From the NCBI GenBank assembly GCA_963827655.1, contig CAWHCF010000026.1, forward strand, positions 128,001 through 192,000: 64,000 nt of DNA, read 5' to 3'. Below, piece by piece: positions 17,423-59,504 of this stretch (position 1 is the first letter of the stretch; each line of letters starts with the position of its first letter). The position numbers and the translations under genes were made by a program. The DNA comes from an uncultured Acidobacteriota bacterium. GTDB lineage: Bacteria; Acidobacteriota; UBA6911. Below the pieces are notes generated by a model, which searched no databases, was not told the DNA's origin, and saw only the letters and a list, made by a program, of their open reading frames with translations.

Positions 17423-17459
17423 CCTTAGCGTTTCTTCGAGTCTTCGCTTTTTTGCGGTT
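17423..17459 (-). repeat. 9-bp-periodic repeat family copy
   Basis: Reverse complement AACCGCAAAAAAGCGAAGACTCGAAGAAACGCTAAGG. Confidence 0.65.
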
Positions 17460-18606
17460 GAGCCTTTTGCCGCTCGAAGTCTATCTGTTCGAAAAGAAAA
17501 AGTCCCGATTTCCCCGGGGCAACAATGTCCAGGTCGCCGTCACCGTCCAGGTCCAGAACCGGGATCTGCATGCCTCCTCCAGCTTTGCTTCCGAAGTCGA
17601 TGACGTGTTTCACGTAGGTTGAACCTGGAGTCGACCGATACCAGTACAGCCCGAGCGGTTCGTAGGCTCCGGGATCCGTATCGTGGGCCAGATAACGCTT
17701 GCCGGTTACGATATCAAGCTTCCCGTCTCCATCCATGTCGGCCAGAGTCAGGGCATGAGCTTGCGACCAGCTGTCGTCAATCAGGTGTTCCTGCCAGGAA
17801 CCGTTCCGGCTCTCCAGCCAGAATAGTCCGTAGTGATGACCGGCGCCGTAGATCAGGTCATTCTTGCCATCGCGGTTGACATCGTCGACGTAAAGCGGAC
17901 TGCATTGACCGCGAGGCGGCAACAAGCGAAAAGCCGGGTGATACTTCCAGGCGGGAGCTTCGAACCATCCATACGACGTCAGGATGTCCGGACGCCGGTC
18001 GCCGTTGAGATCCCCTGCCCCGATTCCGTGCAAACCCTTGACGTCCGGAACCGTTCCGACGACGTGCCGCACCCAATCACCCTTCGTGAAGGGCCGCGCG
18101 CGCTCGAACCAGACGACTTCCCCGCTGCTGCCGTAATTCGGGAGTATCTCCTCGGCTTTTCCGTCTCCGTTGATGTCGACTAGAAGGATCAGTTCATAAT
18201 TGAAACCGCTCTCGATGGGATGTTCTTTCCACAAAGAATCGCTGCTGCTCTTGCCCGGGTTCTGATACCAGGACATCTTTTTGCTGAACCAGGAGCTCGC
18301 GATCACATCGGGATAACCATCGTCATTAACATCCAAGGCGAAATTGCTGAGATCGTCGATGTAACCTGAAATGAATGGTATTTCTCGAATGCGGTGCTTC
18401 GTCCATTGAGGAGCTTCATACCAGTTTTCACCGGCAAAGATGTCCAGCCGGCCATCCTTGTTGATGTCGGCCACGGCCGCCGATTCGTTGGCCCCGCTGT
18501 CCAGCACGTGTTTGCGGAACATCGGCCAGCGTGGTTGCGCGTCATTCCTCTGCGGATAAAAGGAAAGAGCGCAGTAAAGCAGAAACAGCGTGATAATTTT
18601 CCTCAT
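17425..18606 (-). CDS. Secreted FG-GAP/VCBS-repeat protein
   Basis: Multiple DxNxDGxxD motifs, signal peptide. Confidence 0.85.
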   Translation of the reverse strand: MRKIITLFLLYCALSFYPQRNDAQPRWPMFRKHVLDSGANESAAVADINKDGRLDIFAGENWYEAPQWTKHRIREIPFISGYIDDLSNFALDVNDDGYPDVIASSWFSKKMSWYQNPGKSSSDSLWKEHPIESGFNYELILLVDINGDGKAEEILPNYGSSGEVVWFERARPFTKGDWVRHVVGTVPDVKGLHGIGAGDLNGDRRPDILTSYGWFEAPAWKYHPAFRLLPPRGQCSPLYVDDVNRDGKNDLIYGAGHHYGLFWLESRNGSWQEHLIDDSWSQAHALTLADMDGDGKLDIVTGKRYLAHDTDPGAYEPLGLYWYRSTPGSTYVKHVIDFGSKAGGGMQIPVLDLDGDGDLDIVAPGKSGLFLFEQIDFERQKAQPQKSEDSKKR

Positions 18607-18723
18607 AAATCGTTCCGCACCAGTTGCGGTATACAATATCCTAATTGAATTGTGTTGTCCGTAGTGGTTTTTGCGAGACGGGCGTCCGCCGCGTCTTCGC
18701 GTCTCAGTGGTGGAGGAGTTGCG

Positions 18724-19893
18724 ATGCAGTCTATTACTCGATTAACCCTGATGCTCGCCGCCGCGCTGTTCGCAGGTATTTTCGAAGGGTCTTCGGCACA
18801 ATCCGGCCCTCGAGTGACCGTCATTCGAACACCCGAACAGGGCGTTCAGCCCCAGACCGCGGTCGATTCAAAGGGGAGGCTTCATCTGATTTACCTCAGC
18901 GGGGATCCTGCGGCTGCGGATATCTTCTACGTGCGCCGCGATCATGGCGGGGATGATTTTACCCCGCCGCTGCGCGTTAATAGCAAGTCCGGGAGCGCGA
19001 TCGCGATCGGCACCGTTCGCGGCGCTCACATTGCGCTGGGAAAGGGGGATCGGGTCCACGTGTCGTGGATGGGTTCCAAAACGGCAGAACCGAGGGGCCC
19101 GCTTGATTCAACGCCCATGCTGTATGCGCGTCTGAACGACGAGGGTAAGGCCTTCGAACCGCAGCGCAACTTGCTCCAGTTCGCGGCCGGGCTCGATGGA
19201 GGCGGCTCAGTCGCTGCGGACGGTCTGGGCAATGTCTATGTAGCGTGGCACGCTGGGGCGGGGATGCAGGGAGAAGCGAATCGCCGCGTCTGGATAACTC
19301 GATCAAATGATGACGGCAGGACATTCACCCGCGAGGTCGCCGTTAGTGATCAACGGACGGGAGCTTGCGGGTGCTGCGGGATGCGAGCTGCCGCAGACGA
19401 CATGAATCGCGTTTATATGCTCTACCGGGGCGCTGCAGCAGAAATCAACCGAGACATATTCCTCCTGAAGTCAGAAGCGGGCGGGGAGAGCTTTGGTGGA
19501 ACCCGGCTTCACGATTGGAAGATCAATGCCTGCCCTATGAGCACGGCCTCGATAAGCCCCGGCGGCCGGGGCGTGATGCTTGGCTGGGAAACAGAGGGGC
19601 AGGTCTACTATGCGACGTTTGACACGGCCACCGGAAAGGTCGGGCCTGCAGTGTCGCCCCCGGGAGGCACCGGCCGGCGAAAACATCCGGCGGTGGCCGC
19701 CAATGCGCGAGGCGAGACGATTCTGGTTTGGACCGAGGGGACTGGCTGGCAGCGGGGAGGATCGGTGGCATGGCAGCTGTTTGATGGCGCTGGCCGGCCT
19801 GTTGCGGAAAGGGGAGAACTGCCGGGCGTTCCGGTTTGGAGCCTGGCCACTGTCGCGCCTCGCCCCGACGATGGGTTCGTTATCGTGTATTAG
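18724..19893 (+). CDS. Secreted BNR/sialidase-like beta-propeller protein
   Basis: Signal peptide, SNDDGRTF Asp-box, GACGCC and INACP motifs. Confidence 0.7.
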   Translation: MQSITRLTLMLAAALFAGIFEGSSAQSGPRVTVIRTPEQGVQPQTAVDSKGRLHLIYLSGDPAAADIFYVRRDHGGDDFTPPLRVNSKSGSAIAIGTVRGAHIALGKGDRVHVSWMGSKTAEPRGPLDSTPMLYARLNDEGKAFEPQRNLLQFAAGLDGGGSVAADGLGNVYVAWHAGAGMQGEANRRVWITRSNDDGRTFTREVAVSDQRTGACGCCGMRAAADDMNRVYMLYRGAAAEINRDIFLLKSEAGGESFGGTRLHDWKINACPMSTASISPGGRGVMLGWETEGQVYYATFDTATGKVGPAVSPPGGTGRRKHPAVAANARGETILVWTEGTGWQRGGSVAWQLFDGAGRPVAERGELPGVPVWSLATVAPRPDDGFVIVY

Positions 19894-19957: not shown

Positions 19958-20005
19958 CGTGTCTTAGTGTTTCTTCGTGTCTTCGTGTCCTAGTGGTATT
20001 TGTTT
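19958..20005 (-). repeat. 9-bp-periodic repeat family copy
   Basis: Reverse complement AAACAAATACCACTAGGACACGAAGACACGAAGAAACACTAAGACACG. Confidence 0.85.
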
Positions 20006-20079: not shown

Positions 20080-20754
20080 ATGCGGCTGCCGATCTTGATT
20101 CTCTTGGCCGGCGCGGCGCTATCCCTCGCGCAGACCCAGACAAAAACCTTTCCTCTCGACTCGCTGGACAATCTCAAAGCGCACAAAGTGAAAGCTGAGC
20201 CCACGACCTTCAAGGGTCGCAAGGCTCTTCGCGTTACGGACGCCGTACAGCAAGGTGGCGAAGGAAGTGAAGACAGACTGGTAATTCTCACGGGCGCCGA
20301 GTTCCAGAACGGCGTTATCCAGGTCGACCTCGCCGGTGAGCCTGGCCCCGGCGCCGCCGAGCAGGCGCGGGGATTTGTCGGCGTCGCCTTCCGTCTGATG
20401 CCGGATGCCTCGAAGTTCGAGTGCATCTACCTGCGGCCCACCAATGGCCGTGCCGAGGACCAGGTGCGGCGTAATCATTCCGTGCAGTACTTCTCATTCC
20501 CCGAGTTTCCATGGTTCCGCCTCCGCAAGGAAAACCCCGAGAAGTACGAGACCTATGTCGATCTGGTGCCGGGTGAGTGGACCAGGATGAAAATCGAGGT
20601 CCAGGGCGCCAAGGCGCGCCTCTTCGTCCACGATAATGGACAACCGACCCTGCTGGTCAACGATCTCAAGCACGGCGATGCTAAAGGATCAATCGCTCTC
20701 TGGATTGGCCCCGGGACCGTCGCCCACTTTTCGAACCTGCGGCTCACGCCGTAA
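20080..20754 (+). CDS. Secreted DUF1080-like (ConA-like beta-sandwich) protein
   Basis: Signal peptide; FQNGVIQVD, RGFVGVAFR, YLRPTNGR, IALWIGPGTVAHFSNL. Confidence 0.75.
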   Translation: MRLPILILLAGAALSLAQTQTKTFPLDSLDNLKAHKVKAEPTTFKGRKALRVTDAVQQGGEGSEDRLVILTGAEFQNGVIQVDLAGEPGPGAAEQARGFVGVAFRLMPDASKFECIYLRPTNGRAEDQVRRNHSVQYFSFPEFPWFRLRKENPEKYETYVDLVPGEWTRMKIEVQGAKARLFVHDNGQPTLLVNDLKHGDAKGSIALWIGPGTVAHFSNLRLTP

Positions 20755-20788
20755 GCCTTCGCCAATACGCCCCACCCATCGACAGCTC

Positions 20789-20821
20789 TAACCACAAAGA
20801 CGCGAAGACACGAAGGAACAC
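20789..20821 (+). repeat. 9-bp-periodic repeat family copy
   Basis: TAACCACAAAGACGCGAAGACACGAAGGAACAC. Confidence 0.85.
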
Positions 20822-20886
20822 CTCCGGATGTCAACGCCGACGATGTGTTAACATGCTGTCTTTGCTCGACACTTTCACGACCGAAG

Positions 20887-22437
20887 ATGCCAGAGAAAAA
20901 ACTAAGACTGACACGGAAAGAATTTCGGGAGGGCCTGCCCGGCACCGACCAGGTGTTTTTCGTGCACGGCGATGAAAAGGTGCCGGCGGGGCGGTCAGGG
21001 GTAAACTTGGGGGTCGCCAAAGCCTGTTACCTTGCCTTGCTCGATCCGGGCCTTTTGCAAGAGCTATGCCGTTCGGTTGAGTTTCAGCCCCCTGGATTTC
21101 GCCTCAACAAAATGGATCCAGCGGAATTGTTCAGCCAGTTCGTGCGGCATGTGCAGAGAAGGGGTTACGGAACAGACGTGCTCGTGAGGCTCATCGATGA
21201 CGCGGCTCTCGATATGGCACAGATTGATCCAATGGTGTTCAAGGTAGACATCCTATCACCCCCTCAAGGCGCCTGGGTCACCGAGTCTGACGCAGAATGC
21301 TGGGCCGCCGCGGCATGGTTAAAAGCCCGCCTCGGAAGACTTGACGAAAATACGGGCTCGAGAGTAGCCGAGATCGGCAGCCAGTGGCGCTTCGAAATAC
21401 CTGCATCAACCAGGCCTCCCGACATCGATTCCCGGCCGCCTCAGAACGGCGCGGCCCAGAAGGCCAAGGAGAAGGCGACAGCGTGGAGGGACCGAGCGCT
21501 CAAGGCGGAGAAAGCCCTGGCAAGCCTGCGCAGTTCCCGAGACAGTTTTGAGAGAGAGCTGCGAGACGCGAAAGGGGAGAGCCGCTCGCTTCAGATAGAA
21601 GTTTCGCGGCTTCGAGAGGAATTGGGGCAGCGAGTCTCCTCGCAAAAAAGCGCGGAAGAAAAGCATGCTACGATGGCCGCACAGTTGAAGGAGGGGCGCG
21701 CTACCATCGTTCGCCTCGAAGCGGAACTTCAAGAATTGAGAGCCCGGCGGCAAGCGGACTCTTTCCCTCAATCAAGTCGGCCGCCGGAGTCGCATGATAA
21801 CGAGCTTTTGCAGAAGCTGGAACGGTTGCAGAAATCCCTGGACGGTGTAGCCGCGCGGCTCAATGAGTTCTTGACAGCGCCCACGCAGGGGCCGGTGGCG
21901 GCCAGGCATTCAGAGCGCGTGATGGCATTCATCGATGTGGCTAATCTCGACTGGGGAGCCAGCACCTATTTCCACGGCAGGGTGGATTACGAACTGCTGG
22001 CTCGTTTTCTCACCTCCCGCACTCCGACGGGACGGGCCCGAACCTGTGAGAATGTCGCGTTTATTTGCCTGGACGGACGCTCCAGCACGAGCGCGTTCGC
22101 GCAGACTCTCAAATCGCTGGGGTACCGCGTCGTCTCCCGCATTATGAAAGTCTTCGCCGACGGGAATACCAAGCGCAATGTCGACGTCCAGCTTGCCGTC
22201 TATGCCATGCGGCAGACCGAAAGGCTGGACACCGCAGTTATCGTTTCCGGGGATAGTGATTTTGGCTGTCTGGCCGAATCCTTCGCTTCCTGTGGAAAGC
22301 GGGTGGAGGTTCTATCATTTCCTAATCTGGGAGCGGAGCTGCGGCGCTTCGCCGACGAAGTCGTCATTCTGGACCAGCGGATTCTTCTTCCGGGAGCCCA
22401 GAGAGAGATTCCCTGGGAGAGGCAGGCGCCATCTTAG
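20887..22437 (+). CDS. NYN/LabA-DUF88 PIN-like nuclease with a long N-terminal and coiled-coil extension
   Basis: C-terminal FIDVANL, KRNVDVQL, VIVSGDSDF, GKRVEV, ELRRFADE; central heptad-rich region. Confidence 0.8.
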   Translation: MPEKKLRLTRKEFREGLPGTDQVFFVHGDEKVPAGRSGVNLGVAKACYLALLDPGLLQELCRSVEFQPPGFRLNKMDPAELFSQFVRHVQRRGYGTDVLVRLIDDAALDMAQIDPMVFKVDILSPPQGAWVTESDAECWAAAAWLKARLGRLDENTGSRVAEIGSQWRFEIPASTRPPDIDSRPPQNGAAQKAKEKATAWRDRALKAEKALASLRSSRDSFERELRDAKGESRSLQIEVSRLREELGQRVSSQKSAEEKHATMAAQLKEGRATIVRLEAELQELRARRQADSFPQSSRPPESHDNELLQKLERLQKSLDGVAARLNEFLTAPTQGPVAARHSERVMAFIDVANLDWGASTYFHGRVDYELLARFLTSRTPTGRARTCENVAFICLDGRSSTSAFAQTLKSLGYRVVSRIMKVFADGNTKRNVDVQLAVYAMRQTERLDTAVIVSGDSDFGCLAESFASCGKRVEVLSFPNLGAELRRFADEVVILDQRILLPGAQREIPWERQAPS

Positions 22438-24882: not shown

Positions 24883-25009
24883 TTAGAAGCAAGAAGCCAG
24901 AATATTCGGGTCTCACTCAGCCTTGGGCGAGCCGCGATTTGGAGCAAGACAGGCGTTACTGGATGCTTATGCCCGAGCCATTCCTGCTTCTGACTTCTGA
25001 CTCCTGACT
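24883..25009. repeat. Inverted pair of heptamer-repeat arms (AGTCAGA type)
   Basis: TTAGAAGCAAGAAGCCAGAAT (24883-24903) facing ATTCCTGCTTCTGACTTCTGACTCCTGACT (24980-25009). Confidence 0.75.
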
Positions 25010-25137
25010 TCCAACCACCGAGGCGCGCGAAGCACTCCGGCCGGATTTTGGGTTTTCATTGAAGAGAGCGGCGGATATAATCGCATGCTGGCAAGGTAAA
25101 GTACGCCGCGCACGGCGTTTCGCGATCTACACGGCTG

Positions 25138-27431
25138 TTGCGGCCTGAAAGGATACCTTTGGGTTCCGGCACGCTTCCTGAGAAGAGCGGATCACGCACT
25201 CGTCGATTCGTCCTGGCCACTATCGCCATCCTGTCACTCGCCCTGATTGCTACCCAGATCTTTCTGCATCAGACCTCCGTGGGGAGTCGGAAGTTCGTTG
25301 GAAACACGTTTCTGCTCTGGACCGCCACAGTCCTGGTAATCCTCGCGCTCTTGATCCTCGCTACCGTATTGGTGCGCAATCTGGTGCGGCTCTATTTTGA
25401 CCGCAAAAGCGGGCAGGTCGGCAGCCGCTTCAGAGTCACGATGGTCACGACCTTTGTCGTGCTGTCGCTCTTGCCGGCGGTGCTGCTCTTTTTTCTCGCT
25501 TACGGACTGATCAATTTTTCAATCGATCGCTGGTTCGGCGCGCCGGCAGCCCAGATGGTGGAGAACAGCCGGGATATAGCCGCTCAATACTACGGTGAAT
25601 TACAGCGCGATGCCAGCCACTTTGCCGAAAGGATCGCCGCCTCGGTTTCGATCGAGGATTCGCTGAATCCCGAGTCGCGAACGTTCGCTGAACGAAAAGC
25701 TGGAGAGACTGCGCCAGGAGTACCGGCTCGAGGGCGCGCGGGTCTTTGACAGCGAGGGCGCCGAGGCTGCGCAGGCCGGTGAAAGAGTCTCGACCAAGAG
25801 TCATCAGGCGCAGATAGCCACGCTGATATCCGCTACTCTGCGAGGCAAGCCGGATTTCCAGGTCAAGCGGATCACGCCCCAGGATGCGCTCAGGGAAGTC
25901 GTCTGGGCCACGGCGCCGATTCGGAATGCGCAAGGGAAAATCGTGGGCGCGGTTTTGACCGAATCGCTGATTCCCAGCAGCGTGAATTTCAAAGCCTATT
26001 CGGTGATGGAGGCTTACGGCAAGTACGTTGAGCTTCAGAGAGAAAAGACGGCGCTTCAGTTTCAGTTCATCCTTATGCTGGCTCTCTCGACCTTGCTCAT
26101 CGTCTTTGCGTTTTCGTGGTTCGGCATGTACCTGGCGAAACGGATAACCGGCCCGATCAAGGCGCTGGCCGAAGGGTCTGCGGCCGTGGCGTCCGGCAAC
26201 CTGAACCATCGGGTCGAGTGTGAGGCTTTCGATGAGCTGGGCGACCTGGTCGCCTCCTTCAATCGCATGACGGGCGAGCTTCAGGAGCACAAGGCTCATA
26301 TCGAGATCGCTCAGAACACCCTGCAGGCAGGCCAACGTAGAGCTTGACGATCGCAGACGCTACATCGAAACCATCTTGCAGACCATCTCCACGGGCGTGA
26401 TATCGCTCGACGGCAACTATCGAATTCACACCATGAACAGGGCGGCCGCGCAGATGTTGGAGGTTCAGGGTCCGGTAGCGGACGTGAAGCTCGAACAGGT
26501 AGTGAAGGAACCGGCCGCCGGTACTTTATTCATGCTGCTGCACAAGTCTGCCGTACTTGGAGTGGTCGTCCGCACGATCGAGATCGAGCTTCCCGGGAGA
26601 ACGCTTCATGTCGCGACCACCGTGACCCCTTTGCTTGACAGTTCGGGACAGCGGACGGGTTGGGTCCTGGTGCTGGACGACGTGACGGAGCTTTTGAGAG
26701 TGGAGAAGATGGCTGCCTGGCAGGAGGTTGCGCGGCGCCTGGCTCATGAGATCAAGAACCCCTTGACCCCGATTCAGCTCTCGGCCAGCCGGGTCTTGAG
26801 GCGTTACCGACAGATCATGAGCACGTCCGCGGGCGACAACGGCTCATGGCACAACGAATTTGTCTCGTTCGAAAACCTGCTCGAGGAATGTGTGCAGGTG
26901 ATCAGGCAGGAGGCGAATTCCCTCAAAGACCTCGTGGATGAATTCTCGCGGTTCGCCCGTCTTCCCCAGGTAAAGTTGGAAGAGGCGGATGTGCACCGGA
27001 TACTGGAATCGACTCTGAGTCTTTATAACGGGCGTTTTCACGACGTCCGGCTCACGAAAGAGTTCGGGCCGGATGTGCCTTCGCTGAAGCTTGATCCAGA
27101 ACAGATGAAGCGCGTCTTCATTAATCTCTTTGATAATGCTCTGGAGGCAATGGCGGATAATTCCCATGCCAAGCTCTTGCGGATACGGACGTATCGCAGT
27201 GTCCTGAAGGCCTCGATTCGTATCGAAGTCAGCGACACGGGTCGTGGTTTCCCTCCCGAGTACCGCGACAGTCTTTTTCTCCCTTATTTCTCAACCCGCA
27301 AGGATGGGACCGGCCTGGGGCTGGCCATCGTCCGGCAGATAATTTCCGATCACCACGGCCAGGTCAGCGCCGAAGTCAACACCCCCCTGGGCACGAAGAT
27401 CGTCATCGATTTACCCTTGGCGCCTTCCTAG
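25138..27431 (+). CDS. ntrY: NtrY-like sensor histidine kinase (HAMP-PAS-HisKA-HATPase); two frameshifts near 25680 and 26330
   Basis: GSRFRV..LSLLP, HAMP ITGPIKALAEG, AWQEVARRLAHEIKNPLTPIQL, GTGLGLAIV. Confidence 0.8.
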
Positions 27432-32491: not shown

Positions 32492-32536
32492 GGGGCCAAA
32501 GATCGGAGTTTTGCAACGCAATTTGGTGTTTCAGAA

Positions 32537-32567
32537 TTCGTGGCTTTGTGTCCTCGTGGTATTGTTT
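32537..32567 (-). repeat. 9-bp-periodic repeat family copy (degenerate) between trmFO and xerC
   Basis: Reverse complement AAACAATACCACGAGGACACAAAGCCACGAA. Confidence 0.65.
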
Positions 32568-33569: not shown

Positions 33570-33603
33570 CGGAGCCAGACCCCACTGCGAAGGAACTGGG
33601 ACG

Positions 33604-34149: not shown

Positions 34150-34160
34150 TGGCGCTGTCC

Positions 34161-34289
34161 GTCGAATAGTCGCAGTCTGCGGCAGACGGCAGCGACCGCA
34201 GTCATGCTGACGATTCGGCAAGTGACACAGATCAGCCCCTGCCTCTGCGACGAGGTCGAACTGCAGCCGCGCGCTGCGAGAGGTTAGAC
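34161..34289 (-). other. Degenerate integron attC-like site between brnA and the GNAT gene
   Basis: Minus strand GTCTAAC..GCGGCTGCAG..GCCGCAGACTGCGACT-ATTCGAC; R'' perfect, R' degenerate; 129 bp. Confidence 0.4.
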
Positions 34290-34826: not shown

Positions 34827-34832
34827 CTCGAT

Positions 34833-34887: not shown

Positions 34888-34929
34888 AACAAATACCACA
34901 AAGACACGAAGACACGGAGAAACACCAAG
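34888..34929 (+). repeat. 9-bp-periodic repeat family copy
   Basis: AACAAATACCACAAAGACACGAAGACACGGAGAAACACCAAG. Confidence 0.85.
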
Positions 34930-36297: not shown

Positions 36298-36490
36298 CGT
36301 GCGGCGCAGCCGTCCCTCATTTGCTTCATTTTCAAATTCCTACCTTCGGAGTCTGACTGGATTGCTTTCGACTGCCCGATCGATCGTGGATTGTGGCAAA
36401 GCGTCCCGGGTGTTTAGGTGCTTAGTGAAACGTTCAAACCAACATGTTGTCGTTCACAAGGGCCTTCGTTCGTGCGAAGTGCCGAACGAA

Positions 36491-36519
36491 CCTTAGTGTC
36501 TTCGAGTCTCCGTGGTGAA
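36491..36519 (-). repeat. 9-bp-periodic repeat family copy
   Basis: Reverse complement TTCACCACGGAGACTCGAAGACACTAAGG. Confidence 0.7.
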
Positions 36520-36640
36520 TGCAGGATAACAGTCTGAATTGAAACTCGCAAAGCAAGCTTCGCCCTGTGGATGTGCAAGCTTGCTGCCGCGCCAGATCGG
36601 GCTGAGATCCACAAATCCCGAGTATCTCCCGTCGGGAAGC

Positions 36641-42764: not shown

Positions 42765-42766
42765 CA

Positions 42767-43459: not shown

Positions 43460-43474
43460 TCATTAATCATTCAT

Positions 43475-43502
43475 CACTAAGACGCCAAGACGCGAAGAGA
43501 CT
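43475..43502 (+). repeat. 9-bp-periodic repeat family copy overlapping the proS stop
   Basis: CACTAAGACGCCAAGACGCGAAGAGAC. Confidence 0.65.
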
Positions 43503-45189: not shown

Positions 45190-45275
45190 GGCGCTCCTCA
45201 ACGCGCGTCGGAATAAACGCGCAGCCGGATAATTCTAGGGGAGTGTCGCGAGTAGTCAAGATGTTCCCCGGAATA

Positions 45276-45310
45276 CTTTGTGTTTCTTCGCGTCTTTGCG
45301 TCTTGGTGGT
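45276..45310 (-). repeat. 9-bp-periodic repeat family copy
   Basis: Reverse complement ACCACCAAGACGCAAAGACGCGAAGAAACACAAAG. Confidence 0.8.
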
Positions 45311-45352
45311 GGTCTTGACGGCTGCGTTGAGCGTGGCTAACATCCGTGGCGC

Positions 45353-46913
45353 ATGGACGCCCCCATCATCAGTATTCCTGATACATTCAACGCCGCCGCC
45401 GAGTTCGTGGACCGGCATGTCGCGGAAGGGCGGGGAGAGAGGATCGCGTTGCGCTGCCGGGAGCGCGCGGTCACGTATCAGCAGGTTGCCGAGATGGTGA
45501 ACCGGACCGGAAATGCGCTCGGCTCTCTGGGCGTTGAGATGGAGAATCGCGTCCTTCTCCTCCTGTACGATTCGCCCGAATTCGTGGCGAGTTTTTTCGG
45601 AGCCATCAAGATCGGAGCCGTTCCCGTCCCGGTCAACACCATGATGCGCCCGGCTGATTATGAGTATCTCCTGAACGACAGCCGGGCCAAGGCGCTCATA
45701 GTGCAGCGGGAGTTGTGGGACCAGGTGGCCGCGGTGCGCGCACCGGCTGAAGTATCTGAAGCACGTGGTGATCGCCGGCGCGCCCGAGCCCGGTCTTCAT
45801 TACTTTACGGACTGGATCGCCGGCGCGTCTCCTGAGCTGGAGCCGGCCGCGACCTGCAAGGATGACGCGGCATTCTGGCTCTACAGTTCGGGCAGTACCG
45901 GCTTTCCCAAGGGAGCCGTGCACCTCCAGCACGATATGGTCTACTGCGCCGACTTGTACGCCGGGCCGGTTCTCGGCATTCGACCGGATGATGTGGTTTT
46001 TTCGGCTGCCAAGCTGTTCTTCGCGTACGGGCTGGGCAATAGCCTTTACTTTCCATTCCGCGCCGGAGCCTCCGCAATCTTGTTTCCGGGGCGGCCGCAA
46101 CCACAGACGGTGTTCGAAATTATATCCCGCGAAAGACCGACACTTTTCTTCGGGGTCCCGACGTTGTACGCATCCATGCTGGCGATGTCAGAGGGCGAGA
46201 GGAGCTATGATCTCTCTTCTCTGCGCCTGTGCGTCTCGGCGGGGGAGCCGCTGCCGGCGGAACTCTACCGGCGTTGGAAAAACCGCTTCGGCATCGAGAT
46301 CCTGGACGGGATCGGAACTACCGAGGTCTTGCACATCTTCATTTCGAATCGTCCGGGCCAGGTGAGAGCCGGCAGTTCAGGAAAGGTGGTCCCAGGCTAC
46401 GATGTCAGAATCGTCACCGAACAGGGCGTGCCGGCAGGTCCGGGTGAGATTGGCAATCTGGCCGTGAAGGGCGACAGCACCTGCGCTTTCTACTGGAATC
46501 AGCACGAGAAGACCAAGCAGGCGATGCAGGGCGAATGGATCCTGACCGGCGACAAATACTACCGGGATGAGGAAGACTATTACTGGTACTGCGGGCGGTC
46601 AGACGACATGATGAAAGTCGGAGGAATCTGGGTCTCGCCCATCGAAGTCGAGAACACGTTGATCCAACACGCCGCGGTATTGGAGGCGGCGGTCGTGGGC
46701 CGGGACCTGGATGGTCTGACCAAGCCTGAAGCCTTCGTGGTTCTGAAGCCCGGTCATACGGCTGATCCCGGCCTGGAAGAGGAGTTGAAGCATTTCGTCA
46801 AAGACAAGATTGCGCCCTACAAGTACCCGCGCAAGATAACCTTTGTTCCGGATCTTCCCAAGACCGCCACGGGAAAGATCCAAAGGTTCAAGCTCCGCGC
46901 GATGGAGGATTGA
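45353..46913 (+). CDS. Benzoate-CoA-ligase-family AMP-binding enzyme (frameshift near 45740)
   Basis: FWLYSSGSTGFPKG, KLFFAYGLGN, DGIGTTE..HIF, PKTATGKIQRFKLR. Confidence 0.88.
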
Positions 46914-47373
46914 CCAGGCTGGAGGATCTATTCGGTACGGACGACGCGCGCAAGCACCGATGATACATGGAGGCTCGGCTCGTGACCGTGCACGACCGGT
47001 ACGCGTTTAACAAGGACATGGTCGTCTCGATCGAGCCGTTCATCGATATTGTCGGGCGCCAATTCAATCAGCCGAAGGAAGGGCTAGGGTTCGACGGAAG
47101 CCCGGTGGCGCACATGTGGCGGACGCTGATCTACCCCGACAATCCGTTGTAGGCGTTCACGATCCTGGTCGGCCTGTCCCGCCATTTAGGTCGTTCGTGA
47201 TTTTTGCTGCGTTATCTCTCAGGTCGCTCTCCGTCCAATCCCGTTGAATCCCAACGCCAATCGGACCGCCGGATGCGATCCAAACCCTGGAGACTATGAT
47301 GAGGGGGCAGCGGCCTCCCGCCGATTTCGACCAGCAATGCGTTGAATTCACTCAGGATCAACCAGGCAATACA

Positions 47374-48690
47374 TTAGCGGACCCGCTTCGGTTGCGACTG
47401 ATCCCATTCCGTGGCGCTGACCTTCCGGGCCTGCTGAAGAAAGACGAACGTGCCGTTCTTGTTGCCGATCACGAAGTCCAGCATGCCGTCGCCGTTCAGG
47501 TCGCCCGTCGCGAGCTGACGGCCCACTCCGGACTGGTCGTCGATCCGGTGCGGAACGTACTCCACGTTGCCGTCCCGTCGAGTCAGTCTGAAGTAGTAGA
47601 TCACCGGAGGTTGGCGAGACCCTGGATCGGCAAAATCGTGCGAGCGGTAGCACTTCCCCGTGAGAATATCCTTCAGTCCGTCTCCGTCCATGTCAACGAG
47701 GGCAACCGCGTGCAGCTCGGAGAATTGAACTCCGTAGGGATTGTCGAGATTCTCCTCGCCCTTGCTCATCAGCACGTGCTCCTTGAAGCTGATGCCGCCG
47801 TCGGTCGCCCGGATCTGCTCGAACCAGCTCAGCCCCCAGGCATGGGCATTCAGGCTCGTGATAACGTCATTGCGGCCGTCCCCGTTGACGTCATAGGTGA
47901 ACATCTGCGCGCCGCCGCGCTCGGTGAACTGGAACGCGTGGAACTTCCACTCCGGATCGCCGGCGAGAGACGGCGGCTGGCGCCACCAACCGTCCTTCGA
48001 CAGGAAGTCCGCGCGGCCGTCCGCGTCGACATCGCCATAACCGAGGCCATGCGTGTAGTGATGCGGGAGCGTCTTTTCTGCGGAAATCGCGTGGAACGTC
48101 CAAGGCTTCGCAGGATCCGTCGGGTGCGGCGTGGCGTAGCCCAGGCGGTCTCGATAACCCATAATCAACTCGGGGCGCCCGTCGCCCGTGATATCGCCGA
48201 AGTCCGGGGATTCGTTGTTGACCTGGTCAATCACGTCGTGGCGCTTCCAGTGGACCGGAGGGCCGGGCGGTCCGCTGAACCGAAGCTTCGGGTTCTCGTA
48301 CCAGTACGCCGCTGTGCTCGGCAGTCCGATGGTCAGGATGTCGGCCCACCCGTCCGCGTTGAAGTCGTAGACGAACGAAAAGAAGTTGTCGAGAGCGTAA
48401 ATCTGCATGTCATTCGGCCCGCGCTTGGTCGGGGCCACGGCCGGGTAGAACTCGTGCCGGAACTTGTAGTCCGGTCCAAGATAGACGTGAGGGCCACAGA
48501 CCACATCTACAGTCCCGTCGCGGTTGAAGTCGGCGAAGTTCGCCCCCTCCGACCAGTAGATCGGAGTCAGGTGAAACTTCCTGAATTCGCGCAGCACGTG
48601 CTCGCTCTCGTTGCTTGCAGCAACGCCAAGCGACAGGCCAAAAAGCGCTCCCAGTACGCGAAGCCGAGTTGGGCGGATCATGGCGCGCAT
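47374..48690 (-). CDS. Secreted FG-GAP/VCBS-repeat protein
   Basis: Repeated DxNxDG motifs, signal peptide. Confidence 0.85.
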   Translation of the reverse strand: MRAMIRPTRLRVLGALFGLSLGVAASNESEHVLREFRKFHLTPIYWSEGANFADFNRDGTVDVVCGPHVYLGPDYKFRHEFYPAVAPTKRGPNDMQIYALDNFFSFVYDFNADGWADILTIGLPSTAAYWYENPKLRFSGPPGPPVHWKRHDVIDQVNNESPDFGDITGDGRPELIMGYRDRLGYATPHPTDPAKPWTFHAISAEKTLPHHYTHGLGYGDVDADGRADFLSKDGWWRQPPSLAGDPEWKFHAFQFTERGGAQMFTYDVNGDGRNDVITSLNAHAWGLSWFEQIRATDGGISFKEHVLMSKGEENLDNPYGVQFSELHAVALVDMDGDGLKDILTGKCYRSHDFADPGSRQPPVIYYFRLTRRDGNVEYVPHRIDDQSGVGRQLATGDLNGDGMLDFVIGNKNGTFVFLQQARKVSATEWDQSQPKRVR

Positions 48691-48919
48691 TCTACCCCCA
48701 CTCGTTCCAAGCAGGCATGAAATCTGATTGTGGAGATTGCCGTCGTCCGGTCGGGGCCGAGTCGACGCCGCTCGACCTCACGAGGACGATGGCGCATGAC
48801 TGTAACCGAACGGGTCATCCGGGATGCAATCGGTAACGACCGTGGCATCGAACCACCAACCTTGCGGCAACAAAAGTTCTAGCGAAAGCAATTTTGGAGG
48901 AACGCTGGCGAGCGAGGGT

Positions 48920-49939
48920 TTAGCCGACCTTGGGCAGCGCCCGAATTGTGAGAGTCAACGCCTGTCTGGGATTTTCGATCAGCAGCTTGCGAATTTGCTC
49001 GTCCGTCACTCCCGTCTTCTTGAGGGCCGGAATGAAGTGGGTGAAAAGGAGTTCGTAATTGCGAAAGGTTCCCCCGCCCGGTTCGCCCACGTGGTACCAG
49101 CCGGAGTCCTGCGAGATCAGGATTCGGTTAATAAATCCGCGATCGATCATCGCCTTGACGAATTGCACATGCCGGTCCAGGGATTTCTCGTTTATTCCGT
49201 CGAACTCAACCCAGGCTCCCTGCTCGGCCGCCTTGGCGTGGAGCGAAGTGTCGGATTCACTCTGGGCATGCACCCAGATGAAAGCCGAAGCTGCCACCCC
49301 TTCGCCCTTCAACAAAGCGAGTTCCTCCATCGCCGCGACGCCGTCACCGGTGTGAGAAGCGATGGTGAGGCCCGTTTGCAGGTGAGTCCTGGCGGCTGCC
49401 CGAACCAGCTTGGCATCGATGTCCGAGAGAGCCCCCTTGTCGACTCCCGTCTTGATGATTCCCGGCTTGATCCCGGTCTGCTCGATGCCGTTGGTAAACT
49501 CGGTCCTCCACCGGACGGCGAGCTGCTCCGCACTCTCCTGATAGGCATGCTGCGGGACAAACTTGTCGTTAGCCGCGCCGTAGTACCCGGTAGTCGTCAG
49601 GAGATGCAACCCGCTTGCCGCCGACAGCTCTTTTAACAGGACCGGATCGCGTCCTATGTACGCCGGCGTGCACTCGACCAGGGTATGGCAGCCGAGGCCG
49701 CGCACCTGCTTCAGGAACGGGAGGGCGGTACGAAACACTTCATCCCGGTTGTAACGTTCCCTGCTAACCTTGTCGGCGCCGACAAAATCCACCATCACGT
49801 GCTCATGCATTAAAGTCATGCCGAGTTTCTCCGCCGGGAGCGGACCTTGAACCGACTGGACCTGAGGGGCCTGAGACGGAAGAAACTTCGGCAGCAGGAG
49901 CGTTGCCGGCAGAGACTTCAGGAAATGGCGTCTGTTCAT
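48920..49939 (-). CDS. Phosphotriesterase-family amidohydrolase with Tat-like signal
   Basis: MNRRHFL; TLMHEH, GIIKTG, SHTG, WVHAQ, ISQDSG. Confidence 0.9.
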   Translation of the reverse strand: MNRRHFLKSLPATLLLPKFLPSQAPQVQSVQGPLPAEKLGMTLMHEHVMVDFVGADKVSRERYNRDEVFRTALPFLKQVRGLGCHTLVECTPAYIGRDPVLLKELSAASGLHLLTTTGYYGAANDKFVPQHAYQESAEQLAVRWRTEFTNGIEQTGIKPGIIKTGVDKGALSDIDAKLVRAAARTHLQTGLTIASHTGDGVAAMEELALLKGEGVAASAFIWVHAQSESDTSLHAKAAEQGAWVEFDGINEKSLDRHVQFVKAMIDRGFINRILISQDSGWYHVGEPGGGTFRNYELLFTHFIPALKKTGVTDEQIRKLLIENPRQALTLTIRALPKVG

Positions 49940-50028
49940 TTTGACTTTTCCGCTTCAATGTTATACTTCCCGCGCTTCGGGCGATCCACTCAAAAACGGA
50001 GCGGGACAAGCCTGGAGGCTGGGTTCGC

Positions 50029-50114
50029 GTCAGAAGCCAGGAGCCAGAATTTCTTCGACAATCTCTCAGCCGCTGACGAGCCATTCTGGATTCTGACTCC
50101 TGACTTCTGACTCC
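50029..50114. repeat. Inverted pair of heptamer-repeat arms (AGTCAGA type)
   Basis: GTCAGAAGCCAGGAGCCAGAAT (50029-50050) facing ATTCTGGATTCTGACTCCTGACTTCTGACTCC (50083-50114). Confidence 0.8.
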
Positions 50115-50161
50115 GGCTTTTGGCGGAACCAGATCCGGTCGGCATAACGCGGGGGGTCTCT

Positions 50162-51399: not shown

Positions 51400-51762
51400 A
51401 TGCCGAAACCCGAGCTCGAGTTTCATGTGCCCGACGACAGCGGCTGGGAGCAATTAAATGATCGACGCCCCGGGATCTTCCAGAAAAATCTCACGAAGGA
51501 TGAAGAGGTCGGAAACGTCACCCGCCTGCTGAAATTCGAGAAGGGGGCCGACTTCCGCTACGCCGGCGTTCTCACCCACGAGTTCTGGGAAGAAGTCTGG
51601 ATCCTGGAAGGATCGCTCACAGACGTGACGCTCTCCCGGACATTTTCCGCGGGGAGCTACTGCTGCCGGCCTCCTGGAATGAAGCACGGACCCTACGTGT
51701 CCGAGACCGGCGCCTTGTTATTCGAGGTGCGCTACTACCTTCCCGGCCAGAAGAGGACTTGA
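51400..51762 (+). CDS. Cupin (ChrR-like) protein
   Basis: HEFWEEVWILEG, CRPPGMKHGP. Confidence 0.85.
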   Translation: MPKPELEFHVPDDSGWEQLNDRRPGIFQKNLTKDEEVGNVTRLLKFEKGADFRYAGVLTHEFWEEVWILEGSLTDVTLSRTFSAGSYCCRPPGMKHGPYVSETGALLFEVRYYLPGQKRT

Positions 51763-52694
51763 TGCGAAGGATGTCCGCCTGGTATGTGACGATCCTCCTT
51801 GCCGCGTCCGTTTTGCCGGCTCAGGAATCGATCACCTGGCCGTCGGTTTCCGAACAGGTTTCGCCCCTGGAGGAAATCAGCCTAAAGGCCGCGGAAGGCC
51901 ATACCGTGGTCGCTGTGGCGCGAAAGCCCCCGGGCAAGGGACCTTTCCCGGCCATCATCTATTTGCACGGCGGACTGGCGACAACCCCCATGGAGCGCCT
52001 GAAGGACCTGGCGCTGCGCCGGCCTAATCCTTCTCGGTACCTGGCGGCCGGCTACGTGATCGTGATCCCGACGTTCCGCAGCCGTCAGCAGGATCCGCAG
52101 ACCCGGGACGCCCTGGCGGACTGCCTGACTGTTGTCGACCACGTCAAGAAGATGCCCGACGTGGATCCGAACAGCGTGGTGGTCTATGGGTGCAGCGGCG
52201 GGGGGAGTCTCGCCCTGGAGCTGGCTGGGGAGGTCCGGCTCAGCGCCATTGCTGCGGAAGAGCCGGCAACCGTTCTATACACCGGGATGTTCACCCGCAA
52301 CACCCCCAGGCGGGGCACGGTGGCTCAGGCCAGCGATGCGGAGTCTATCATGGAGGATCCGAAGCGGTTCTACACTGAAGAGGCGCAGAAGTTCACCCGC
52401 GAGAAGATCCGCAAGATCGCGTGCCCCATTCTGATCGTCCAGGGGGACCAGCACATAATCAACAAGATCAACAACGAGCTTTTCATTCCGGAACTGAAGA
52501 CGCAGGGAAAGAAGATCGAAGTCATCACCTATGCCGGCGAGCGGCACTGTTTCGGCTTCGCAGGAGATGGCAGCCCTCAGGCGGCGAGCCGGCTCTTTTC
52601 CGACTGTCAGGCTTTTTTTCTGAAGCATCTGCCGCGCCGGCCAAGGCCAATCGCTGAGTCGCTGATCCGGTGGGCGCCGGTGCAGACCCAGTAG
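51759..52694 (+). CDS. Secreted alpha/beta hydrolase (S9/dienelactone-hydrolase-like)
   Basis: HGG, GCSGGG nucleophile motif, QGDQ, ERHCF. Confidence 0.85.
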   Translation: MMRRMSAWYVTILLAASVLPAQESITWPSVSEQVSPLEEISLKAAEGHTVVAVARKPPGKGPFPAIIYLHGGLATTPMERLKDLALRRPNPSRYLAAGYVIVIPTFRSRQQDPQTRDALADCLTVVDHVKKMPDVDPNSVVVYGCSGGGSLALELAGEVRLSAIAAEEPATVLYTGMFTRNTPRRGTVAQASDAESIMEDPKRFYTEEAQKFTREKIRKIACPILIVQGDQHIINKINNELFIPELKTQGKKIEVITYAGERHCFGFAGDGSPQAASRLFSDCQAFFLKHLPRRPRPIAESLIRWAPVQTQ

Positions 52695-52710
52695 CCGCCA
52701 CAGGTGGTTC

Positions 52711-52748
52711 TAACCGCTAAGACACGAAGTCGCCAAGGAACACAAAGG
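52711..52748 (+). repeat. 9-bp-periodic repeat family copy
   Basis: TAACCGCTAAGACACGAAGTCGCCAAGGAACACAAAGG. Confidence 0.75.
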
Positions 52749-52761: not shown

Positions 52762-55493
52762 TCATTCATGGCGCAAGGCCGTCATCGGATCGATGCGCGC
52801 GGCCCGGCGGGCAGGGACGCAGGCGGCGGCCATTGCCGCAACCGCAAGCACCAGGCCGGCGAACACAAGAGTCGCCGGATCGTGCGGCGCGACTTCGAAT
52901 AAAAAGGCGCGCAGCGCGTAGCCGACCGCGATGGTGAACGGAAGTCCGGCCACAAACGCCCATGCGACCAGGCGCGCAGCTTCAGCGAGAATCAGTTGCA
53001 GAACTTCTCCGCGGGTGGCGCCAAGTGCCAGGCGCAAGCCGATCTCGCGAGTCCGGCGCCCGACCGCATAGGCCAGCGTGCCATAGAGGCCGACAACGGC
53101 CAGCACGAGCGCCAGTCCGCCGAAGCCCAGGGCCAGGCCCAGCAGCAGACGTTCACGCGATGTCCTTTCCGCCATCCGAGCGGAAAGGGTGGTAGTCCTC
53201 TGGACCATCAGCTGCGGATCGGCTTCGGCGAGCGCCTTGCGCGCCTCGCGCAATACACCGGCTTGCGTACCCGGTTCGATCCGCAACGAGACAGAGCTGA
53301 TGTGAAATGGCGCTTGTGCCAGAGGCGCCCACATCATGGGTTCCGCTCTGGCCTCGCGCAAATCGTTATACTTGGAATCTCGCACCACGCCGATCACGGT
53401 GAAAGGCCGCCTTTCCTCGCCCGGATAGTCGAGCGCGAGCCTTCGACCGAGCGCCTCCCCATCGCCGAAGCGCTTCCGTACCAGCGCCTCGTTGACCAGG
53501 GCGACCCGAAGTGTGCCCTCACGGTCGTAACTCGTGAAGCTCCGGCCGCGGACCAGCTGCATGCCGACGGTGTCGAAGTAACGCGGCGAGACATAGTCCA
53601 CAAGACCAAAGCTCCGATCGTCGGGCTGCTCCGGGTCGATCAGGCTCAAGCCGAGGTAATTTCCTCCAAACAGGCCGAGCCAGGAGAGGCTCGCCGCGCG
53701 CACTCCAGCCAGAGCGTTCAGGCGCTCTTCGAGAGCGAGATACAGAGCCGCGCGCCGTGACTTCTCCTCGGGACCGTCGACCACGCCGAAGGACGGACCG
53801 TCCCGCTCGTGGCGCACGTCCAGGACCACGACTTGCTCCGGCTGAAACCCGGGGTCGACGCCGTAAATCCGGACGATCGTTTGCAGCAGCAGCCCTGCGC
53901 CTGATACGAGCAGGAACGACAGCGCCAGCTGCGCCGCTACCAGAGTACGCATGAGCCGCAGCGCGGGTCGGCTGCTTGTGGTGCGCCCCACCCCGGCCAT
54001 CGCACCCTGCAGGTTGGCGCCGCTCAATCGAAGGGCCGGCAGAATCCCGGTCAGCAGCGCGCTGAATCCGGTTGCGATCGAGCGCCATGGCCAGGACGCG
54101 ATAGTCCGGCCTGGTATCGAGCGAGATGGGCAGATAGGGAAGTGAGACCAGCGCGGCCAGAGCGGGAGTTCCTGCCCAGGCCAGTCCGATTCCGGTGAAC
54201 CCGCCGATTGCGGCCAGCAGCGCGCCTTCCGTGGCAAGCTGGCGAATCAGCCGGACCCGATCGGCGCCGAGCGCCGCACGCGTCGCCAGCTCCGAAGCGC
54301 GCGCTGCGCCACGCGCAAGAGAAAGGTTGGCAACGTTGACCGCGGCGATCAGCAGCACCACGCCTACAACCGCGAGCACGAGTATCAGTGGCCGGGCGAA
54401 CGCTCGCCGTACCGCCTCGAGACCGCGATCTCCCGGCAAGAGCCGCATCGTGAAATCCCCGGCCGTGGCAGGCTGACGGTCCGGCCCCACGGACCGGGGA
54501 GGCGCAGCCGCCACGAGCCGCTGGTAGATCATTGTCAGCTCCAGTTCGGCCTGCGTGATCGTTACGCCAGCGGCGGAGACGGCCCATGACTCCGGAAAAG
54601 AAAGCCATGCCCTGGCTGGCCAGCAAGTTAGGGTCTGTCAGAGGCCGCAAAGGAACCCACAGGTCAGGCGCATAACCGGGTTGATGGCCCCGAAACTGTC
54701 GCGGCGCCACCCCCACGATGGCGCAATCGGTGCTTTTGACCCGCAGGGTGCGCCCGAGCACGGTCGGATCTTGCTGGTAGCGCCGCATCCAGAGGCTGTG
54801 GCTGATAACCGCCCCGCACCCCCCGCTGCCCGACTCTCCGGGAAGCAGGTCATCGTTCTCGCTCAACAGTCGGCCCAGGGCGGGCGACACACCGAGAAGA
54901 GGGAAGTAGCCGCCCGAAACATAGCTCCCGCTCACGTAACTCGGAGTTGAGTCGCCGTCCAGGGTAACCTTGAGATAGGGCTGGTCGCTGACGGCAAACA
55001 CTCCCTGGAGCGTGGTCTGCGTTCGGCGGAGCTCTTCGAACAGCGGATTGAACAGCACGAAGCGCTGCCCTCGAAGATGGGGGGAGAGAATGACCAACCG
55101 GTCCGGTTCAACCACGGGCAAGGGACGAAGCACGGCTGCATCGAGCACGCTGAACACCGCCGTGGTCGCGCCAATCCCCAGGGCGAGCGAGATCACTGCC
55201 ACGACGGTAAACCCTGGATTTTTGCGCAGCATCCGCAGCGCGTAGCGCAGGTCTTGTTCGAGACGTTCGAGTGATGACCAGCCCCACATCTCCCGAGTCA
55301 CCTCCTTTATGAGTGGAACGTTGCCGAAGTCCTTCAACGCCCCGGCTCGAGCGATTGCCGGCATTTCACCGGCTTCGATTCGCTGCCGGATCTCGATTTC
55401 CAGATGCGCGCGGATTTCCGCATCGAGTTCCTCGTCCGCCCGTTGGCTTCGGATGAAGCGCCCAAGCAGTCTCGTGAATCGCCCAAGGTCCAT
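52762..55493 (-). CDS. Duplicated MacB/FtsX ABC permease (ADOP type); frameshifts near 54570 and 54070
   Basis: ELDAEIRAHLE, QDLRYALRMLRKNPGF, NVANL..RASELATRAALGA, RTREIGLRLALGA, PARRAARIDPMTALRHE. Confidence 0.88.
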
Positions 55494-59100: not shown

Positions 59101-59457
59101 GACCGTACCGGCGACGGCAACTTCGAGTCGGACGCGATGCGGGACTCCATCAAGAGCCGGGTGCCAATCTTCGATCGCTCCGCATTCGTGCTTCCGGCCA
59201 CCGGCCGCGGCTTCTACGGCAACTCCGCACGGTACGTCCTGACCGGCCCAGGCCAGTCAATCTGGAATCTGGCCATTCACAAGAACTGGAAGCTCGGTGA
59301 AGAGCGCGCGTTCCAGTTCCGCTGGGAAATGTTCAACGCCTTTAACCGCGCCAACTTCAACAACCCGACGACCAACATCCAGGCCGGCGATTTCGGCCTT
59401 GTTACCACCGCTCAAGCGGGCCGCTCGATGCTCTTCGGTCTCAGGTTCGATTTCTAA
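56167..59457 (+). CDS. Oar-like TonB-dependent receptor with carboxypeptidase-regulatory-like N-domain
   Basis: GAVTDPSGA..PGFYRVTV, NNWSPRIG, FRWEMFNAFN, C-terminal GLRFDF. Confidence 0.92.
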   Translation: MMQMVTRLFLFIALWSSFSTTQLLAQFTQSSILGAVTDPSGAGVVGAEIKVTNEGTNFVRAVNTDERGDYRVSGLEPGFYRVTVTAGGFTTFDQTRIDLASNQAKRVDVRLQVGEVATTVTVEGGVTQVETETASLSNIKTARDFAQLPLSIFGRGWANVTNVTAGIQSTSGFEVNGARDTANNFTADGISVNDMISSRNTANGFSGDIETFQEIKILTANSSAEYAQVAQFAAVSKQGTNAYHGSLYWGNFNSYFSARAWSDTQPPSFTNHNMFAITGGGPVVIPNLYDGRDRTFFFASYSGARYRVGNRLFLIVPTPAMRQGNFSALAGAGRINLVDPLNNMEPFPNNTIPASRISSVSRTLQDLLYPDPNQVGQGTYGMANNFYADPGGAYDSNVYSFRGDQKISDKNLLFARVGLTMTNGDTYLGGLKSGYGSGSILSNIPGRSVVISDTHTFSANLLNEVKLGFNRTYSESKDYNFGVDVQSQLGIQGIDNPGNDPSISSMPQFTYGGAIPIAASTGRNQAYTAQNTYQVIDNVSLHKGRHNMKFGGEVRRLQVNNQNKPLNVRGAYSFDDRLTGLAYANFLLGWPSGATRGIARPNAYPRSTYWGFYWQDDLKLHSRVTLNFGVRYEYQTPWVEKYDRMFTFDPTTGSLVTAGSTIPTDLVPQVAATLPIRTASDAGLPERSLMFNDGNNWSPRIGLAIRPFGDATTVVRAGYGVYAQFWPGLLALNATGGPWQSTESFILENPNTPAIQFPAPFVATSTFSGVQTINSTSPHFPSENTHQWNFSFGRQILGMAVDIAYVGTRSLNVPYSEDLNLLRPSTTPFSAARRPYSRYNAANLVQAGGSATYHGFTIQADRRMSRGLWFNVNYTLAKGLTDVDLRGYSTGAQQNQYARFLERADDSNLRRQQLRFSYVFDLPVGRGQRFLNGISSPLDFVIGGWQLSGITTMVTGQRLSPAYSNADPAFTNQFSGRPDRTGDGNFESDAMRDSIKSRVPIFDRSAFVLPATGRGFYGNSARYVLTGPGQSIWNLAIHKNWKLGEERAFQFRWEMFNAFNRANFNNPTTNIQAGDFGLVTTAQAGRSMLFGLRFDF

Positions 59458-59465
59458 GCGCGCAC

Positions 59466-59504
59466 TAACCACAAAGACACGAAGACACGAAGAAACGCGA
59501 AGAA
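59466..59504 (+). repeat. 9-bp-periodic repeat family copy (near consensus)
   Basis: TAACCACAAAGACACGAAGACACGAAGAAACGCGAAGAA. Confidence 0.9.

Follow-up and report, generated by a model that had tools for sequence, protein, structure and literature searches.

Oriented arms of 8-nucleotide words in an uncultured Acidobacteriota bacterium resemble REPIN-type selfish repeats and are probably linked to GxxExxY/PDDEXK_3 nuclease genes

The closest described systems are repetitive extragenic palindromic (REP) sequences, bacterial interspersed mosaic elements (BIMEs) and REP doublets forming hairpins (REPINs), together with REP-associated tyrosine transposases (RAYTs). These systems (PMC3116915, PMC3337134, PMC2817692, PMC3733652) comprise hundreds of short extragenic repeats, present as inverted doublets with a short spacer and as many singlets, which also form larger mosaics, flank one or a few small enzyme genes, and have expanded in a lineage-specific manner. 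Each of these features has a counterpart in the repeats analyzed here, which were noticed in a 64,000-nucleotide (nt) stretch of an uncultured Acidobacteriota bacterium (GCA_963827655.1, contig CAWHCF010000026.1). This stretch, G000:C26:128001-192000, is referred to as the window, and the genome from which it comes, G000, is an assembly of 8.18 Mb in 53 contigs with a completeness of 90%. The repeats are short oriented arms, in which a head is followed by regularly spaced words. The window repeats are probably single arms, devoid of genes, that belong to a family of small selfish repeats spread over the whole genome; the full-length form of this family would be a cassette carrying a GxxExxY/PDDEXK_3 nuclease gene. 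They look like a little-known kind of selfish repeat, similar to REPINs and BIMEs but with a PD-(D/E)XK nuclease as the serving enzyme, and not like a gene-capture system.

Searching the window with a 16-nt core and up to three mismatches revealed 14 matches against 0.40 expected by chance, and none of 100 shuffles reached 14. The motif proposed in an earlier note on this DNA is therefore real. Each arm consists of an ACCAC or ACCGC head and three or four words of CACGAAGA type, spaced at 8 nt in both the consensus and the information profile; the 9-bp period given in the earlier note was thus corrected. A profile was seeded from eight window copies and used with a cut-off of E<0.01. Nine copies were detected in the window, eight of them being the seeds, which match by construction, and one, at 43469, being independent. 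Of the 14 sites that the note had listed, these nine were retained, the site at 32537 was faint (E=3.7), and the sites at 51370, 25013, 27455, and 30635 showed no profile match at E<=10. All nine window copies were single arms located at gene boundaries, and the description of an oriented, non-CRISPR family at such boundaries was upheld.

The profile search of the whole genome revealed 767 arms at E<0.01, including 366 at E<1e-4. The window is only mildly copy-rich: it contains nine copies, whereas the genome averages 6.1 per 64 kb and 21% of 64-kb windows reach nine or more. Its first 17 kb contained no copy at the profile level, as had been noted before; inter-copy gaps of more than 17 kb make up 14.5% of all gaps, so this absence is unremarkable. 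By their heads, 294 arms were assigned to type A (AACAAATACCAC), 151 to type B (AGCTCTAACCAC), and 321 to other types. Among 198 adjacent pairs in '-+' orientation, 85 lay within 30 nt of each other with heads facing across a spacer of about 18 nt, and close pairs in each of the three other orientations numbered 0-2, with two compact tails-in pairs. The earlier statement that the repeats are not palindromic thus holds for single units and fails genome-wide, where 85 palindromic head-to-head doublets exist. The composition of 87 compact doublets was also uneven: 56 were A/B heterodimers, one was B/B, and none was A/A. The two arms of a doublet were no more alike than random arms (identity 0.627 within and 0.639 between doublets), which indicates that pairing is not kept by compensation, and the fixed difference between A and B suggests that it is the words, and not a stem, that are conserved. 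Doublets sit inside bigger mosaics of 110-180 nt. At least 100 nt were shared with one 180-nt mosaic at 58 loci, and about ten of these loci, on different contigs, were 92-96% identical, suggesting that multi-module units were copied fairly recently.

In BIMEs, Y and Z REPs are joined in a fixed way, which is comparable to the joining of A and B arms. The octamer unit differs from REP and REPIN units in that it is composed of tandem 8-nt words with no internal palindrome (folding z 0.24), that its consensus contains no GTAG/CGTC tag, and that near-identical arms occur in different phyla.

A link to an enzyme was suggested by the genes that such arms flank. TIGR04256 (GxxExxY) and PF13366 (PDDEXK_3) each had one match in the genome, at C19:35523-35905(-), in a gene that is broken over three frames with one TAA. 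Weak arms flank this gene with their tails towards it (E=0.022 and 0.13). The earlier note had stated that similar repeats flank GxxExxY genes in other genomes and had seen no such gene in the window. This statement was borne out by the C19 flanks, by the related genome G007, and by 15 of 20 relatives' loci, and the absence from the window was correct, since the only copy of the genome is the broken one on contig C19. When G000 is included, 31 related genomes were searched, and 16 of them carried the GxxExxY family; G028, which is among those searched, is unpublished and supports none of the claims made here. At 15 of 20 GxxExxY loci in the relatives, the flanks formed an inverted word array that beat all 200 shuffles; the aligned flank stretch at these loci was a head followed by phased words, with heads outermost, and the other five loci failed. 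The words varied between loci, and nearest protein neighbours had similar words, as labelled by eye.

G007, which belongs to a sister genus, harbors an intact 131-amino-acid (aa) gene with GAAGACGC arms (G007:C689, locus L025). Judged by eye, this gene and the first of the fragments into which the G000 copy is broken are about 76% identical. A three-word pattern matched 402 sites in G000, 152 in G007, and 10 in G010, with 0-2 matches in each of the other 28 relatives and none in 23 of 30 relatives. For a second G007 gene, with CACGGAGGA words, 22 sites matched within G007, and four other genomes had no such site. The GAAGAC word type is abundant in G000 too, where the matching gene is broken. 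By far the richest of the 31 genomes in GxxExxY matches was G019, of the same class and another family, with 19 in 5.3 Mb, several of which contain internal stops.

The intact 131-aa protein matched Pfam PDDEXK_3 (E=3e-35). E82 and K84 were invariant in 16 sequences and D72 was present in at least 90%. An AlphaFold2 model of the 131 aa (mean predicted local distance difference test score, pLDDT, 94.7) contained no added DNA-binding domain. Its Foldseek neighbours were all PD-(D/E)XK proteins, namely lambda exonuclease, Cas4, restriction-endonuclease-like proteins, and Hjc, at weak scores (best E=0.01), and a PDB sequence search with the protein gave no match. The gene flanked by the arms thus encodes a PD-(D/E)XK fold, in contrast to the HUH Y1 fold of RAYTs. 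TnsA of Tn7 is a PD-(D/E)XK nuclease that acts in DNA mobility. TnsA and the PDDEXK_2 family share this fold and so provide a precedent for its use in cutting element ends, and the GxxExxY protein differs from both in having only 131 aa, no extra DNA-binding domain, and no partner genes seen in its cassette. In the cited part of a 2012 superfamily survey, PDDEXK_2 is labelled a 'putative transposase' family, whereas the function of PDDEXK_3 is given as 'Unknown', with 'multiple transfers' (PMC3424549). No description of the system was found in the literature searched, which left subscription journals and supplements outside; there, 'GxxExxY' occurred in no title or abstract, and four word strings were absent.

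The repeats were unevenly distributed across genomes. The exact pattern occurred 277 times in G000 compared to at most four times in each of 300 genomes sampled evenly from the phylum, and was absent from 296 of these. Likewise, 80 proS loci from metagenomes, spanning 415 kb and at most 80% identical in amino acids, contained no octamer copy. An exact 31-nt stretch of head plus three words was found at nine loci in metagenome-assembled genomes (MAGs) labelled Acidobacteria, Alphaproteobacteria, and Betaproteobacteria. At four of these loci (L002, L004, L008, and L009; Proteobacteria), heads-out terminal repeats surround a common non-coding core of about 140 nt; the others comprised two compact tails-in hairpins, one heads-in doublet, and two tandem direct arrays. 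The flanks available at the nine loci were 200 nt long and contained no GxxExxY gene. An element that moves horizontally would be in keeping with both the patchy occurrence among relatives and the presence of near-identical arms in distant phyla. At L005 and L007, the arm of head and words is repeated in tandem and in direct orientation at intervals of about 80 nt, and the C-rich spacer is repeated as well, a layout not seen in G000.

The heads-out terminal inverted repeats around the 140-nt core, as well as the heads-out gene cassette, resemble miniature inverted-repeat transposable elements (MITEs). The octamer family differs from MITEs in that the doublets of G000 are heads-in (85, against two tails-in) and that its putative enzyme is not among the known transposases. 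Mosaic ends were ragged, and no target-site duplication was seen at the mosaics.

A mechanism can be proposed that would connect the repeats with the nuclease. The full-length form would be a cassette of about 0.55 kb in which the 131-aa GxxExxY/PDDEXK_3 gene lies between two arms with heads outermost. The nuclease would read the phased words, probably as several protomers, as suggested by the 8-nt phase and the three to four words per arm, and would cut near the head. Host repair or recombination could then copy arms, doublets, and mosaics to permissive sites, mostly just past stop codons. Because the only cognate gene found is broken, the roughly 770 arms would now be either stranded or served by a gene copy in the unassembled 10% of the genome. 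Rearrangements at copies, for example by proS, would arise as a side effect of the large number of dispersed repeats and not from dedicated capture.

Several observations weigh against the nuclease-served reading. The sole cognate gene in the assembly is broken, yet the mosaics of 92-96% identity suggest recent spread; an intact cognate copy may lie in the unassembled 10%, or inactivation may be recent. The CAGAGACG words of a third G007 gene are not dispersed as a family: only two sites matched, and one of them is the gene's own arm. G019 carries a gene with near-identical words but had no match to the three-word pattern, and G010, with its 10 pattern matches, had no GxxExxY match (86% complete). 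The doublets of G000 are heads-in and the gene cassettes heads-out, so the doublets are not simple internal-deletion derivatives of the cassettes. The correlation between protein and words would also arise if gene and arms were inherited as one unit. Finally, neither target-site duplications nor empty sites were detected; the relatives available reached about 80% proS identity at most, and none of the related genomes belongs to the same genus.

Some of these points would suit another enzyme, either of the RAYT Y1 type or an unrecognised transposase, moving the arms, with GxxExxY genes as passengers or as homing genes that prefer arrays. Such an enzyme would account for near-identical mosaics in a genome whose only GxxExxY gene is broken, and for the five of 20 loci that failed the flank test, where some arrays were one-sided or absent. 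A Y1_Tnp gene is indeed present at C35:41745-42074, but this sole PF01797 match had no octamer arms within 2 kb or in its immediate flanks, and the units lack both the hairpin and the GTAG/CGTC tag that RAYTs use. Transposition of single-stranded DNA by HUH enzymes typically leaves a replication-strand bias, whereas the orientation of the arms showed no link to local GC skew (98/104 vs 99/103, p=1). In addition, the word type tracks the GxxExxY protein subgroup, by labels assigned by eye, and two word types are dispersed in G007, which carries the matching genes, CACGGAGGA being dispersed only there among five genomes. We therefore consider it unlikely that a different enzyme moves the arms.

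The placement of the copies was examined with home-made and rather crude gene calls, in which 6145 genes took up 80% of the genome. Intergenic copies numbered 627 of 767 and occupied about 10% of intergenic gaps. The four combinations of flanking-gene orientation contained similar numbers of copies (182, 180, 156, and 109). Per kb, there were 0.49 copies between convergent, 0.39 between co-directional, and 0.28 between divergent genes (chi-square p=1.5e-5), and 65% of copies in co-directional gaps lay in the half closer to the upstream stop. This mild lean towards 3' ends is the expectation for repeats tolerated away from promoters. The same densities, the stop-proximal position, the strong hairpins formed by doublets (mean -37.9 kcal/mol, z about -7), and the conservation of the same words across phyla would also be in keeping with a host function, in which arms terminate transcripts, make them more stable, or serve as binding sites for a nucleoid or regulatory protein of the host. 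Single arms, however, were unfolded (median z 0.24, with z<-2 in 4%), and TTTT was found within 20 nt of the tail in only 18 of 363. Together with the orientation classes, these results rule out single arms as intrinsic terminators, and the alternative raised in the earlier note, that copies simply match transcript 3' ends as terminators, fails for them. Selection for the hairpin was also dropped as an explanation, given the lack of co-variation between doublet arms. Host function is further opposed by the independence of arm orientation from the flanking genes and by the absence of copies from 23 of 30 relatives, 296 of 300 phylum genomes, and all 80 metagenomic proS loci. Overall, a role of the arms as host-function sites appears quite improbable.

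The earlier note had interpreted the arms as ends or landing pads of a DNA capture or exchange system acting in trans, with the genes between them as exchangeable cassettes and the copies at borders of accessory and core DNA. Integrons, with their attC sites and gene cassettes, are the nearest known parallel to this idea. Like attC sites, the arms are imperfect inverted repeats between genes, and the gene at 20080-20754 has an A arm on one side and a B arm on the other. Unlike integrons, the system has no integron integrase, its orientation is random, its arms are dispersed rather than in one array, and no co-variation was seen. Neighbouring singlets showed the orientations ++, +-, -+, and -- in 123, 126, 111, and 117 cases (p=0.77), and pairs around exactly one called gene were equally even (13, 16, 18, and 17; p=0.83). 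The inward pairs around the APC permease and proS, which had been regarded as brackets, are thus at chance level. The arms 19963(-) and 20785(+) resemble a doublet whose loop has been opened by a single gene, as a capture system might produce, but A-/B+ pairs were not enriched genome-wide. Loop insertion as a general process was not supported: seven A-/B+ or B-/A+ pairs were found at 60-3000 nt against about four expected, a number estimated by hand from arm-type frequencies.

Synteny was compared with three genomes of the same family, G002, G005, and G007, the last in 800 contigs. The relatives share the order histidine kinase, sigma-54 regulator, TrmFO, XerC, and convergent proS. In G000, xerC and proS, which are adjacent in all three relatives, are parted by a 9.9-kb block (33600-43460) containing a GNAT gene, brnT, an amino-acid permease, and a SECIS-bearing cluster. 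Copy 43469 is located at the right border of this block, in agreement with capture, and the left border has no copy. The putative formate-dehydrogenase half of the block is located elsewhere in G007 and G002, and in G007 octamer repeats again come after it. A 3.2-kb block (46913-50120, three ORFs), which is absent from G002, splits the AMP-ligase and GFO/IDH/MocA oxidoreductase genes that lie 68 nt apart there, and neither of its borders bears a copy. Copy 45275 sits in the G000 junction between proS and the AMP-ligase gene, a junction that neither G002 nor G007 shares; upstream of proS, G007 lacks a copy, and it carries one past its AMP-ligase gene, at the point where the adjacency seen in G002 is lost. 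Copies therefore vary at orthologous junctions of G000 and G007, whose proS alignment covers 564 residues of the 574-residue query.

With a copy at one of the two borders of the 9.9-kb block and at none of the 3.2-kb block, the repeats do not mark accessory/core borders as a rule. Most window junctions were rearranged relative to G002, G005, and G007, with or without copies, and at such a distance most junctions differ in any case, so the breakpoint idea is compatible with the data only anecdotally. Moreover, repeats that avoid operon-internal gaps would fall at breakpoints anyway. No integrase could be tied to the copies, and the XerC-like gene (32.6-33.6 kb) is a conserved TrmFO neighbour in all three relatives. 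These findings suggest that a dedicated capture or exchange system is very improbable.

Other word arrays were observed at comparable places. A family with CTGACTTC-type words is present at a gene junction at window positions 24983-25012. The TrmFO/XerC gap of G007 (L034 480-590) contains an array of 7-nt words, GATTGCG/GATTGAC, and the gap after proS in the closest metagenome locus (L044 4180-4370) contains a GGCAGTG-word array. The L034 and L044 arrays occupy junctions that carry octamer copies in G000, and it seems that several word-array families can settle in such permissive gaps.

If the link between repeats and nuclease is true, the large orphan family PDDEXK_3/GxxExxY would gain a first role, and a second system of repeats plus enzyme would exist in several bacterial phyla, similar to REPIN-RAYT but with another fold and with tandem words instead of a hairpin. 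A more speculative extension, which we hold tentatively and regard as doubtful, is that the phased 8-nt words form a modular address, with one protomer of the 131-aa nuclease per word and matched nuclease-word pairs. Cassette, doublets, and mosaics would then belong to an undescribed class of mobile DNA that crosses phyla and seeds rearrangements and gene relocation, as at xerC/proS. The arms also matter for annotation: they break assemblies, create spurious open reading frames (ORFs) of the 'LRVFVV'-type reading, and rewrite the 3' ends of genes such as proS and the FG-GAP gene. In addition, they may mark rearrangement-prone sites.

The copies in the window are listed in Table 1. Arm 17424 provides the final approximately 12 codons and the stop of the FG-GAP gene at 17425-18636(-), with an overlap of 17425-17462.

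Table 1. Octamer-word arms in the window (window coordinates; E values from the profile search)
Feature	Position	Strand	E value	Profile status	Surroundings or remark
Single arm, ACCGC head and three to four 8-nt words	17424..17462	-	3.6e-6	seed	
Weak partial arm	18690..18714	-	0.04		absent from the list of the earlier note
Single arm, A-type head (AACAAATACCAC)	19963..19999	-	6.2e-7	seed	between ORF 18652-19893(+) and 20080-20754(+)
Single arm, B-type head (AGCTCTAACCAC)	20785..20821	+	7e-7	seed	between 20080-20754(+) and NYN-domain gene 20845-22437(+)
Faint, decayed A-type arm	32528..32561	-	3.7	below threshold	between TrmFO and XerC
Single arm, A-type head	34893..34929	+	1.3e-5	seed	3 nt short of the stop of permease gene 34933-36297(-); BrnT gene on the opposite side
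Single arm, small extra hairpin module at tail	36486..36522	-	4.3e-6	seed	upstream of amino-acid permease gene
Single arm	43469..43501	+	0.0088	non-seed	over last codons and stop of proS, 43477-45201(-)
Single arm	45275..45312	-	5.2e-5	seed	divergent gap between proS and AMP-dependent ligase gene 45765-46913(+)
Single arm, B-type head	52707..52747	+	1.4e-7	seed	between convergent hydrolase, 51759-52694(+), and FtsX permease, 52762-54237(-)
Single arm, B-type head	59462..59502	+	4e-7	seed	5 nt past the stop of a 1096-aa outer-membrane barrel gene

A small membrane-protein ORF starts about 30 nt beyond arm 59462. Two long ORFs, 59257-59724(-) and 59297-59782(+), run through this repeat and appear spurious; their peptides include readings such as 'LRVFVV'. 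Past the arm, the gene that is probably genuine encodes a small membrane protein, putatively GlsB/YeaQ-like, with a start near 59531, and is not a brnTA pair.

Scanning the window with Rfam at gathering thresholds revealed nothing at the repeats, and the sole match was a SECIS element. This SECIS_3 match, at 38865-38923(+), scored 66.9 bits against a gathering score of 63 and lies at the join of ORFs 38289-38870 and 38883-41297, which are probably one selenocysteine gene with stop readthrough. The neighbouring genes suggest that it encodes a formate dehydrogenase. ORF 38883-41297 is 86% identical to a G007 gene. An NtrY-like sensor kinase at 25138-27431 was called as three separate ORFs (NtrY_N; HAMP; PAS-HisKA-HATPase) that correspond to one matching block in G007. 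This kinase gene may be broken, or the split may be an artefact of the home-made ORF calls.

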